From: a virus
DNA length: 38,576 nucleotides
Reading direction: 5' to 3' (one strand)
Virus record (IMG/VR): IMGVR_UViG_3300045988_131186
Span: 1 to 38,576 of that record
In this document: positions 6,890 to 8,833 of the stretch, piece after piece
Numbering within the stretch: the first letter of the stretch is position 1
How the letters are laid out: each line of letters opens with the position of its first letter
Program-made: the position numbers and the translations under genes
The notes under the pieces: model-generated
Told to the model about the DNA's origin: nothing
Database searches by the model: none
Seen by the model: the letters and a program-made list of their open reading frames with translations, nothing else

Positions 6890-8833
6890 TTATTTCCCGC
6901 CAGAAATCTTTTTCCATATCCAAGAAAGCGCATATCGGACTACTAGCCACTCAATAGCTAATACTCCAAAGTCAAACCAAAAGCCCTTTGTTGATGGTTC
7001 TGAACCGATGTAACCATGAATCAATAGGTCGAATAGTAACGGCAATGTGCCGAATGATGCGATAAAAGCCGCCGGTCTTCCAAATAAAACCTGCAACACA
7101 GGCTTCAAAACTGTAAGGCTTGCGCGAAAGATAGATCCTATTACTCTGAACGGAAGCGGTGCACACTGACTGCGCATCTGTACCAACTTAGAACGCCCCC
7201 ACAACCGAACGCCAATGCGTTCTGCAGTTTCAACGGCGGCCGCAGTAAATTCCTGATTTGTCATCACAACAGGGGTTCGATTTCCATAATACGCAGCGCC
7301 GGAAAACGCCTCCTGTACTGCATGATTGCCCACTGGTGAAGTGTAGCGCTTGCACTGAATCGCATAGCTGTCCATGCCTTTCTGAGCAAGCACGTCAATG
7401 CCATAATCCCCGCTGGTTTGCGTCACTTTTACGTTGCGAAAACCGTTCGCCCGGAGAAGCGATGCACAAAAGTGCTCAAACTGCTCTCCCGTCATGCTAT
7501 CGCATGACTTTATTGTGGGAAGCAATGTGTAGCGCTTCTTTGGCTTGTTCTTTTCTGTTGTGTGACGATTCTCCGCGTAGCTTGGCGCATCAAAAGACGA
7601 CAATCGGGGAGGCGTCGAGTTTTCTTCTTCTCCAGGCAATGTCAACTGAGTGGCACAACGAGAGTTTTGCGATTCATCGCAATCGCCCGCTTCAACAGCC
7701 AATTGATTTTTGGGAACATCTTCATCCTGCGGTGACGCTTCGTTGTGCGATTCTTGCATTATCATCTCAATCCACTGCTGGCGAGTAATGAGCACTTGCC
7801 GGGGCTTCGAGCCTTCATATGGGCCGATAATGTGGAGTTGTTCCATTTCGTCCATGATGCGGGCTGCTCGTGCATAGCCCAATTTGAATCGCCTCTGCAG
7901 AAGGCTAGTAGACGCCTGTCCCACGTCGATGACAACCTCTACAACCGCTTTGAGCATTGGGTCTTGGCTATCATCATATTCCACTTCTTCACTCTGCACC
8001 GGCGCAGCATACCTATTAATCTCTTGAATAAAACTCTCACTATAATTTGCGGCTGATTTCCCTTTGATTTCTTCCAGCAAATTATCAATAGTGGAATCTT
8101 CTTTAAAAACTGTTTTTACCAGCGCACGCGGAAATACTCCAGCCGAGTAAAATATTGCTTCGCCTTCATTGAGGAGTTTTTCAGATACCGTACCTCCCAA
8201 AATTTTTTTGCTATCGCTCTTTTCGGGCATCCTAAAACATAACTTACTCGGGAACTGTGACAAAAAATTTTTGCCCGGTACACTTTGCGTGGTTAGCAGA
8301 AGATGTACTCCCGCCGATCTACCAGCCTGCGTAATGCGCTCTATGTAACCTTCTGCTTCATCTCTATGTGCCGTTAAAACAATATCAAAACTATCAGCTA
8401 TGACAAGAATATGAGGCATCAACTCGGCCCCAGAAACTTCGTTCACTGCCTCATTATAACTTTCAATGTTCCGTACTTTAATTTCGGCAAAAAGCTCATA
8501 CCTTTTTTCAATTTCTACAGCTAAAGCAGCAAGTACGCCAATTGCTTTCGTATAATCCTTTACGACAGGCATCAGCATATTTTCAACGCTGTCATATCCC
8601 GAGTACTCAACACCTTTGGGGTCGATTATTATAAGTTTAAGCAAATCGCCTGGACAAAGTTCAAGTAATTCCACTAAAGCGCTGCGCAGAAATGTAGACT
8701 TTCCGCTTCCAGATGCGCCGGCAATAAGCAGATGGGGAGAACGAGTAAATTCCCAATAAACCACCTGCTCAGGGCCATTGATGATTGTTCCAATGGGAAA
8801 CAGTAGGGGCGCGCGCTCCAATGTATGCTCCAT
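6890..8833 (-). CDS. Fusion protein: FtsK/SpoIIIE-type ATPase, FtsK-gamma wHTH, Mrr-type (PD-(D/E)xK) nuclease domain and C-terminal transmembrane helices
   Basis: 647 aa. RBS aaggagg. Walker [10 protein letters not shown] (res 39-47), Walker B-like [22 protein letters not shown]. Gamma domain [59 protein letters not shown] (res 291-349). Mrr_cat-like [10 protein letters not shown]...YAIQCKRY (res 474-497). Hydrophobic helices in res ~560-640. Confidence 0.85.
   Translation of the reverse strand: [647 protein letters not shown]

Follow-up and report, generated by a model that had tools for sequence, protein, structure and literature searches.

What function might a temperate phage derive from a single gene in which pieces of the bacterial DNA pump FtsK are joined to an Mrr-type nuclease and a predicted membrane anchor? 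Such a gene, encoding a protein of 647 amino acids (hereafter, the query), lies on the minus strand at positions 6890-8833 of the IMG/VR virus record IMGVR_UViG_3300045988_131186, which was analyzed over its whole length of 38,576 nucleotides (hereafter, the window). A sequence-only reading of this DNA, made without database searches, had listed in the protein an FtsK ATPase, an FtsK gamma domain, an Mrr nuclease and C-terminal hydrophobic helices, and both Pfam and AlphaFold2 (AF2) confirm that list. The analyses described here suggest that the query may be a lysogen-expressed, membrane-tethered, single-gene nuclease serving superinfection exclusion or defense against incoming DNA, a proposal to which we give an even chance. 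Exclusion or defense is the most likely role because of the position of the gene in a lysogeny slot and its presence/absence polymorphism.

Nuclease, predicted membrane anchor and FtsK motor

The AF2 model, computed from a 33-sequence alignment with a mean predicted local distance difference test (pLDDT) score of 81, comprises three confident globular domains (residues 10-280, 290-365 and 440-556), a disordered stretch (residues 366-434) and three C-terminal helices. In the last globular domain, which holds the Mrr_cat nuclease, residues E453, D476, D480, Q493 and K495 are invariant across ten proteins of the gamma-Mrr-transmembrane (TM) type (alignment A1), a conservation on which the sequence-only reading had staked its nuclease. 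No Pfam match to the Mrr_N winged helix was obtained at E-values up to 0.1, and the FtsK gamma domain is the only winged helix of the protein. The ratio of nonsynonymous to synonymous substitution rates (dN/dS), calculated by segment from a comparison of the window gene with its 90%-identical relative, rises from 0.02 in gamma through 0.18 in the nuclease, 0.19 in the motor and 0.25 in the linker to 0.34 at the C-terminus. Judging from its invariant catalytic residues and from this purifying selection, the nuclease looks active.

At the C-terminus, two windows with favorable Wimley-White transfer energies are followed by a basic tail, and the same arrangement is seen in all relatives. The hydrophobicity of this region is moderate in the query (Kyte-Doolittle maximum of 1.75), and its segment 'GRPAAFIAS...' aligns with 'GRPAAIAAT...WVGKKLLK' of P0122. 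These profiles make insertion of the predicted C-terminal hairpin into the membrane likely. None of the Pfam holin families matched the query.

The N-terminal domain is that of an FtsK motor. Pfam FtsK_SpoIIIE (PF01580) matches residues 21-184 (E 2e-32, well over the curated cut-off, as are the gamma and Mrr_cat matches), phmmer against the PDB matches the FtsK structure 2iut (E 5.6e-40), and Foldseek superposes the first domain on the FtsK motors 2ius, 2iut and 6t8b (E ~1e-22) with a root-mean-square deviation (rmsd) of ~2 Å over 278 residues, one superposition giving E 7e-23 and an rmsd of 1.8 Å. The 647-residue protein presents no Pfam match to the FtsK alpha domain (PF17854) or to the N-terminal membrane domain (PF13491), and its N-terminus falls at the alpha/beta boundary; alpha is present in every cellular FtsK match.

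Residues with known functions in Pseudomonas aeruginosa FtsK (PaFtsK) are the catalytic E596, D599, the arginine finger R620, the sensor T630-Q631 and the DNA-gripping R632 of loop II (bioRxiv 10.1101/2022.01.03.474797), and these positions were tabulated over all collected homologues. The query motor keeps K45, D147, R172 and T182-Q183, and has lost the equivalents of E596 and R632, with TTQSVP standing where FtsK has ATQRPS. The sequence-only reading was therefore right to suspect a degenerate ATPase, in which the catalytic Glu of Walker B and the DNA-gripping Arg have become S148 and S184, but it mistook the QRP region for the arginine finger: the Arg of QRP corresponds to R632, and the finger itself, R620, is retained as R172. 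All of the cellular FtsKs (72/72) are canonical (GKS / DE / D / R / TQR). The query clade combines E596S and R632S with an intact Walker A, R620 and T-Q sensor; clade 2, which is 38% identical and has the same architecture, shows Walker A K-to-R, E596G, T630A and R632V/Q; clade 3 (P0147/P0148) shows Walker A K-to-R only; and P0179 shows R620S. At least one catalytic substitution is thus found in roughly 50/50 Mrr-fused motors versus 0/72 cellular FtsKs. This pattern indicates that the motor is probably catalytically disabled in every Mrr-fused clade, by substitutions that differ from clade to clade.

The motor is not decaying, as it is under purifying selection. Because Walker A, the arginine finger and the sensor are kept, nucleotide binding is likely retained, and the beta domain can probably still bind nucleotide without hydrolyzing ATP or gripping DNA. 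Most plausibly it is a selected, non-catalytic add-on that would act as an oligomerization, regulatory or nucleotide-sensing scaffold. Synonymous divergence (dS) between the window gene (6890-8833) and its allele in L001 (10001-11956) is uneven, being lowest in the motor (0.12), intermediate in the nuclease and tail (0.25) and highest in the linker (0.44) and gamma (0.48), which indicates recombination inside the gene.

The wider family was collected with residues 280-647 of the query. Searches retrieved 1,462 proteins at E ≤ 1e-10 from a set of 5.8 billion proteins and 569 clusters (50% identity) at E ≤ 1e-30 from a representative set of 1.84 billion; the family is also found on 155 IMG/VR viral contigs, identified by a family alignment scan, and in 265 species genomes. 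The best-scoring matches are mostly proteins of 230-450 residues made of gamma and Mrr_cat without the motor. The domain orders are Zn-ribbon-gamma-Mrr-TM, gamma-Mrr-TM, TM-TM-gamma-Mrr, gamma-TM-TM-Mrr, gamma-TM-Mrr, TM-Mrr-gamma-gamma, TM-TM-Mrr, gamma-FtsKbeta-Mrr, FtsKbeta-Mrr and FtsKbeta-gamma-Mrr-TM. Mrr_cat and a membrane segment are the constant core of every prophage-borne architecture, with gamma common and the motor optional. Since it is apparently disabled in a different way in each clade and is absent from most members, the motor can hardly be an essential working part.

Two further arrangements were observed in the collected loci. In L058 (6616-8675), a truncated FtsK-like protein with alpha and beta only and an intact Walker B is followed after 3 bp by the gene for a 308-residue protein that combines Mrr_cat with an HPD motif, J-domain-like, at its C-terminus; this pair may represent the system split over two genes, its ATPase still active. 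In some 39 loci (L031-L094), minimal TM-Mrr proteins of ~150 residues from the same Mrr subfamily are encoded by syntenic chromosomal genes of Acetatifactor-like Lachnospiraceae; these loci have ordinary chromosomal neighbors, with no integrase or repressor nearby.

The state of the motor bears directly on the mechanism favored by the sequence-only reading, in which gamma and the ATPase capture incoming double-stranded DNA; in its full form, an ATP-driven machine of the FtsK/HerA type, resembling DndH or SspH, would pump that DNA into the nuclease. An ATPase-nuclease concept directed against invaders has been described for the HerA/FtsK 'capture' systems DndH, SspH and mad8 (PMC10853773, PMC12839542). 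PADLOC matched the query motor to the FtsK-like C-termini of SspH (8e-31), DndH and mad8, covering only the last ~200 positions of the SspH models. Like those systems, the query joins an FtsK/HerA P-loop to a restriction-endonuclease-fold nuclease in a putative anti-invader setting, and its Walker A, arginine finger and sensor are retained. However, the translocases of the known capture systems are active and come with multi-gene or multi-domain partners, whereas the ATPase of the query is an FtsK-proper beta domain with gamma, apparently disabled and optional, and no Dnd, Ssp or other partner genes lie near the gene. A machine of this kind would have to operate with both the catalytic Glu and the DNA-gripping Arg changed to Ser and without an alpha domain, and its sister clades carry Walker A K-to-R, E596G or R620S, and most of the family has no motor at all. 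We regard such a pump as very improbable, and this part of the sequence-only reading is not supported.

The repressor-integrase slot and known systems

The query gene forms part of a leftward operon, where its own ribosome-binding site and its position between the ImmA and integrase genes, both claimed by the sequence-only reading, were confirmed. It follows the ImmA gene after 21 nt and abuts the integrase gene. Terminator-like sites lie 3' of the integrase gene at 5171-5146 and 4998-4974, and strong minus-strand terminators of the leftward operon are found only there. The repressor open reading frame (ORF) was recognized by a local XRE profile, with only a weak BetR match in Pfam.

In the query clade, in clade 2 and in three short relatives, every examined locus, from metagenomes or genomes, presents a repressor, sometimes with an ImmA-like gene, then the family gene and an integrase gene at the edge of a prophage. 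Across the IMG/VR contigs, 80 of the 155 were kept for counting, and many of those lacking a flank are cut by contig ends: 55/80 have a co-oriented integrase gene no more than 4 kb downstream (22 serine-type, 33 tyrosine-type), 55/80 have a co-oriented XRE repressor gene upstream, and 41/80 have both. A functional link to the serine integrase was considered and rejected, as tyrosine integrases flank relatives equally.

Three sister phages (L098, L099 and L100) do not carry the gene, and yet their repressor, ImmA and integrase are 98%, 96-98% and 95-96% identical to those of the window. In L098 and L100 the gap between ImmA and integrase genes measures 1.6 kb; the slot of L098 (5060-6600) holds a lipoprotein-like ORF and a gene for an NYN-domain protein, and that of L100 holds the same alternative cargo. 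In L099 (6311-6964) the slot is occupied by a TM2-domain membrane protein. Because near-identical sister phages without the gene hold other cargo there, this interval is a variable accessory slot, and the view that the gene is a moron is borne out. The compositional argument offered for it fares less well. The gene is indeed AT-rich relative to structural genes (46% GC versus 56% in late genes), but the whole lysogeny module is at 47-51%, so the bias is not specific to the gene and low GC was rejected as a specific sign of horizontal acquisition. In a clade-2 phage (L006), a gene with an Abi_alpha domain (7874-8680) lies beside the lysogeny module and represents a second candidate defense gene at the same end.

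A conjugative or DNA-transfer coupling protein, or else a decaying, non-functional fusion, could in principle account for weak similarity to the TcpA, TraB and EssC ATPases. On the viral contig L096 (4264-6204), moreover, a 99.7%-identical gene is split into an FtsKbeta+gamma ORF and an Mrr-TM ORF, a split explained either by a frameshift in this allele or by an error in sequencing. No conjugation operon was found around the relatives, whose contexts are prophage lysogeny modules, as the sequence-only reading had anticipated for homologues of a defense gene; over 100 contigs carry the gene intact, and every segment shows a dN/dS of 0.02-0.34. An origin in DNA transfer or simple decay is accordingly the least credible of the alternatives, and we judge it extremely unlikely.

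Searches among catalogued systems and structures returned parts of the query only. A tblastn search against 50,697 GenBank phage records gave no match covering at least 80% of the protein, a fold search of BFVD found no full-length structural analogue, and full-text literature searches found no description of a fusion between FtsK gamma and Mrr. The architecture is new to the PADLOC models and to the literature searched, and defines a large uncatalogued family; the sequence-only reading, likewise, had not recognized it as a named defense system.

The beta and gamma domains of the query are true homologues of those of FtsK/SpoIIIE (2iut, E 6e-40, rmsd ~2 Å). Unlike FtsK/SpoIIIE, the query has no N-terminal membrane domain, long linker or alpha domain, has Ser in place of both the catalytic Glu and the DNA-gripping Arg, places its anchor at the C-terminus and adds a nuclease, and it is prophage cargo rather than a core gene. 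With Mrr and other type IV enzymes it shares the catalytic domain (PF04471) with its D...D...QxK core, and in both a winged-helix DNA binder is joined to Mrr_cat. It differs from them in that this winged helix is FtsK gamma and not Mrr_N, in its predicted membrane anchoring and in the extra, apparently dead ATPase.

Among described systems, the best functional precedent for the core of TM and Mrr, by analogy, is Epona, an integron cassette of Vibrio cholerae in which a single gene combines Mrr_cat with a two-TM, holin-like domain and which is anti-phage in Escherichia coli (bioRxiv 10.1101/2024.07.02.601686). The query also joins Mrr_cat to two predicted TM helices in one polypeptide, a likeness drawn from the published description only. 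Epona differs in having neither gamma nor FtsK domain, and in its phylum and integron setting. The best nuclease match in PADLOC was ZorD (8e-22), and the PADLOC candidate PDC-S02 and LmuA were matched as well. ZorD, an SNF2 helicase with an Mrr-like nuclease that works with the membrane proteins ZorAB in Zorya, matches through its nuclease tail (model positions 941-1059), and in both a nuclease would act at the membrane or where DNA enters; in contrast to Zorya, the query has no zorA, zorB or zorC neighbors and no SNF2 helicase, and its anchor resides in the same polypeptide. PDC-S02 and Lamassu LmuA share an Mrr_cat-like domain with the family (E 1e-7 to 1e-14), but only their nuclease is matched (model positions ~190-310 of 334), the rest being unmatched in the tested members.

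The gamma domain and the proposed role

The gamma domain has a history distinct from that of the motor. Compared with the cellular FtsK of the Ruthenibacterium type (P0048), gamma is 88-100% identical in amino acid sequence (~90%) versus 41-43% for the motor. Third-codon-position identity to the host ftsK is 0.27 (saturated) in the motor and 0.56 in gamma, and GC content at third positions (GC3) is 0.36 in the motor, 0.56 in gamma and 0.86 in the host gamma. From the third-position identity and the step in GC3, it follows that gamma entered from a host-type ftsK after the motor did. Since its capture, gamma has remained nearly unchanged at the protein level. Recent gene conversion from the host ftsK was rejected in its simple form, with third-position identity at only 56%; the data fit an older capture, later than the origin of the motor, followed by purifying selection.

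In E. coli, gamma reads FtsK-orienting polar sequences (KOPS) through N1296, R1300 and E1303 (PMC2533119), of which R1300 and E1303 have also been implicated in the interaction with XerD (PMC2965235). The corresponding positions are A321, R325 and D328 in the query and in the host FtsK alike, and a second, independent case of correspondence with a resident FtsK occurs in L012 (4406-8266), from an Oscillospiraceae metagenome-assembled genome (MAG), where a chromosomal TM-Mrr-gamma-gamma gene lies 28 bp 3' of the cellular ftsK and encodes a second gamma identical in sequence to that of the adjacent FtsK. This arrangement could be a tandem duplication of the 3' end of ftsK or an assembly effect. 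A conserved nuclease gene downstream of ftsK in the host lineage was considered and rejected, as the gene that follows the host-type ftsK in L095 is unrelated. The match between gamma and host is not universal: many family members have no gamma, and the recognition-helix Arg is replaced in the P0150/P0167 group ('GYAVAATIMD'). For the gamma of clade 2, a word-indexed search gave only short FtsK fragments, at 72-77% identity.

Such correspondence with the host FtsK raises the possibility that the protein manipulates host chromosome biology, as a membrane-bound FtsK look-alike that competes with or joins the host FtsK, or that engages Xer recombinases or KOPS sites; possible outcomes are altered dimer resolution or segregation, stabilization of the lysogen, or a block of Xer-dependent mobile elements. 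The beta and gamma domains are FtsK proper, their best non-family matches are Oscillospiraceae FtsKs, family genes lie beside the cellular ftsK in L012 and L062, and gamma carries the positions tied to XerD. This explanation nevertheless leaves the invariant nuclease, the only universal domain, unexplained; family members may lack motor or gamma; an FtsK double ring would require the alpha domain, which the query does not have; and integrases of the serine type accompany the gene in some phages and those of the tyrosine type in others. We therefore hold a manipulator of the host chromosome to be improbable.

The same gamma data can be reconciled with abortive infection, where a nuclease held inactive at the membrane would be released or activated upon infection or membrane perturbation, guided by gamma to KOPS-like motifs of the host, and would kill the cell before the invader replicates. 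In this respect, gamma is of host type with the same recognition residues while the motor is only 41% identical, its dN/dS is by far the lowest of the segments, the gamma of the L012 nuclease matches that of its resident FtsK, the membrane part of Epona has been described as holin-like, and the lysogeny slot would suit this role equally. But neither a trigger nor an antitoxin partner is apparent, gamma is missing from many members or has its recognition Arg replaced, and host-tracking could not be shown for clade 2. KOPS-type motifs such as those of E. coli are sparse, and would be poor guides for fast killing. Abortive infection is thus rather unlikely, if the foremost of the alternatives to exclusion. 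Only slightly less probable is a specific use of the captured host gamma, through KOPS-type motifs and Xer contact, for telling self from non-self or for a chromosome-aimed suicide, with the dead motor forming a ring that would present three gammas to one motif; this we consider an unlikely elaboration.

Returning to exclusion or defense against incoming DNA, the effector would be the Mrr_cat endonuclease, anchored by the C-terminal helical hairpin to the inner side of the cell membrane, with both ends of the protein in the cytoplasm. Gamma, on a flexible linker of ~70 residues, would provide binding to double-stranded DNA, and the disabled beta domain may oligomerize or regulate, gathering several gamma and nuclease domains. 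The protein would then cut DNA that enters at, or lies at, the membrane, whether from a superinfecting phage or from other mobile DNA. We infer here that lysogens express the gene and that its product inserts into the membrane in this topology and cleaves DNA; the same holds for its target and for the sparing of self DNA.

Several observations weigh against this proposal. The hydrophobic helices are weaker in the query than in relatives, which have clearer hairpins. No sigma-70-type promoter for the leftward operon was found with a simple consensus scan or by eye, so that expression in lysogens is read from gene order alone. PADLOC returned domain-level matches and no full-length model, both for the query and for seven relatives that represent the main architectures. 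Two or three relatives, including L012 and L062, adjoin the cellular ftsK and are not in prophages; because of these and of the chromosomal TM-Mrr members, the family is not exclusively phage cargo. A host-type gamma would, if anything, bind host DNA, and no mechanism that spares host DNA is evident. Lastly, the exclusion or defense role is argued from sequence and context.

The carrier phage and its wider meaning

The window is a temperate phage of a human-gut Clostridium. Its ends are identical over 99 nt (1-99 and 38478-38576), which shows it to be the circularly assembled, complete genome of a temperate phage of ~38.5 kb and not a chromosome fragment. It encodes a terminase, portal, tape measure, tail fibre, lysin and RecT. 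The query gene recurs with an identical sequence in an Anaeromassilibacillus sp. MAG, and at 90% identity in Ruthenibacterium lactatiformans and in ~100 gut metagenome contigs. The features of the gene and its operon are collected in Table 1.

Table 1. Positions in the window of the query gene, its segments and motifs, and its operon neighbors
Feature	Position	Strand	Basis or remarks
Large serine recombinase (integrase), directly 3' of the nuclease gene	5173..6849 (or 6933)	-	Pfam
Whole gene, 647 aa: FtsK-beta (predicted disabled) / gamma / linker / Mrr_cat / predicted membrane hairpin	6890..8833	-	ORF call, Pfam, AF2
C-terminal amphipathic helix (aa 560-584), hydrophobic helices (aa 587-609, 615-643) and basic tail: predicted membrane hairpin	6905..7156	-	
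Mrr_cat PD-(D/E)xK nuclease, aa 445-553	7175..7501	-	Pfam PF04471, E 1.4e-29; pLDDT 90-97
Disordered acidic/Pro-rich linker, aa 366-434	7532..7738	-	pLDDT <50; length and sequence vary among relatives
FtsK gamma winged helix, aa 289-350	7784..7969	-	Pfam PF09397, E 3.5e-27
FtsK RecA-like beta domain, aa 8-280, without alpha, predicted catalytically disabled	7994..8812	-	Pfam PF01580, Foldseek, pLDDT ~90
TTQSVP, aa 181-186, with the sensor T182-Q183 retained and S184 in place of the DNA-gripping Arg (PaFtsK R632)	8276..8293	-	
Walker B VIADSFD, aa 144-150, with D147 retained and S148 in place of the catalytic Glu (PaFtsK E596)	8384..8404	-	
Walker A GASGSGKST, aa 39-47, intact	8693..8719	-	Motif table
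Shine-Dalgarno AAGGAGG	8843..8849	-	9 nt 5' of the ATG at 8833
ImmA/IrrE-type M78 metallopeptidase, 5' neighbor in the same operon	8855..9448	-	Pfam
Helix-turn-helix repressor ORF, likely start ATG at 9812, leads the leftward operon	9426..9836	-	Local XRE profile

Other features of the window were observed alongside the gene. The intergenic region between the repressor and the early genes (9840-9930) contains repeated CTAG-containing, operator-like inverted motifs, tctagcaaaacctaga and ttctaggataagctaga. The copies of a 22-bp inverted repeat (37974-37995 and 38470-38491) enclose the 3'-terminal part of the tail-fibre gene (36397-38274), together with the region just 5' of a second recombinase gene, of the tyrosine type (63-1181); the tail-fibre repeat region looks like a cassette for inverting the fibre tip, equipped with an invertase of its own, and hence like a host-range switch. 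At 16654-17355 a metallo-beta-lactamase-fold protein is encoded, whose homologue in L001-L003 was flagged with the Anti-Pycsar Apyc1 family and which may be a phage counter-defense enzyme, and an N6/N4 DNA methyltransferase gene (20093-20950) lies just 5' of the terminase gene.

If the proposed role is correct, the query represents a widespread single-gene family for defense or exclusion in temperate phages of dominant human- and animal-gut Clostridia. The hosts of the carriers are Oscillospiraceae and Lachnospiraceae, for which defense catalogues are thin and where PADLOC is blind to the family. The protein would also illustrate exaptation, with a housekeeping DNA pump reduced to a dead scaffold and a sequence-reading tip and joined to a nuclease; the joining of FtsK to nucleases happened several times, in different domain orders. 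Furthermore, gamma closely resembles that of the resident FtsK in two independent cases, which prompts the question whether FtsK-orienting motifs could act as a signal of self-identity; if true, self would be told from non-self by a motif of chromosome architecture and not by DNA modification or guide RNAs. Prophage genes of this kind would shape phage susceptibility in the gut, the outcomes of phage therapy and horizontal gene transfer.

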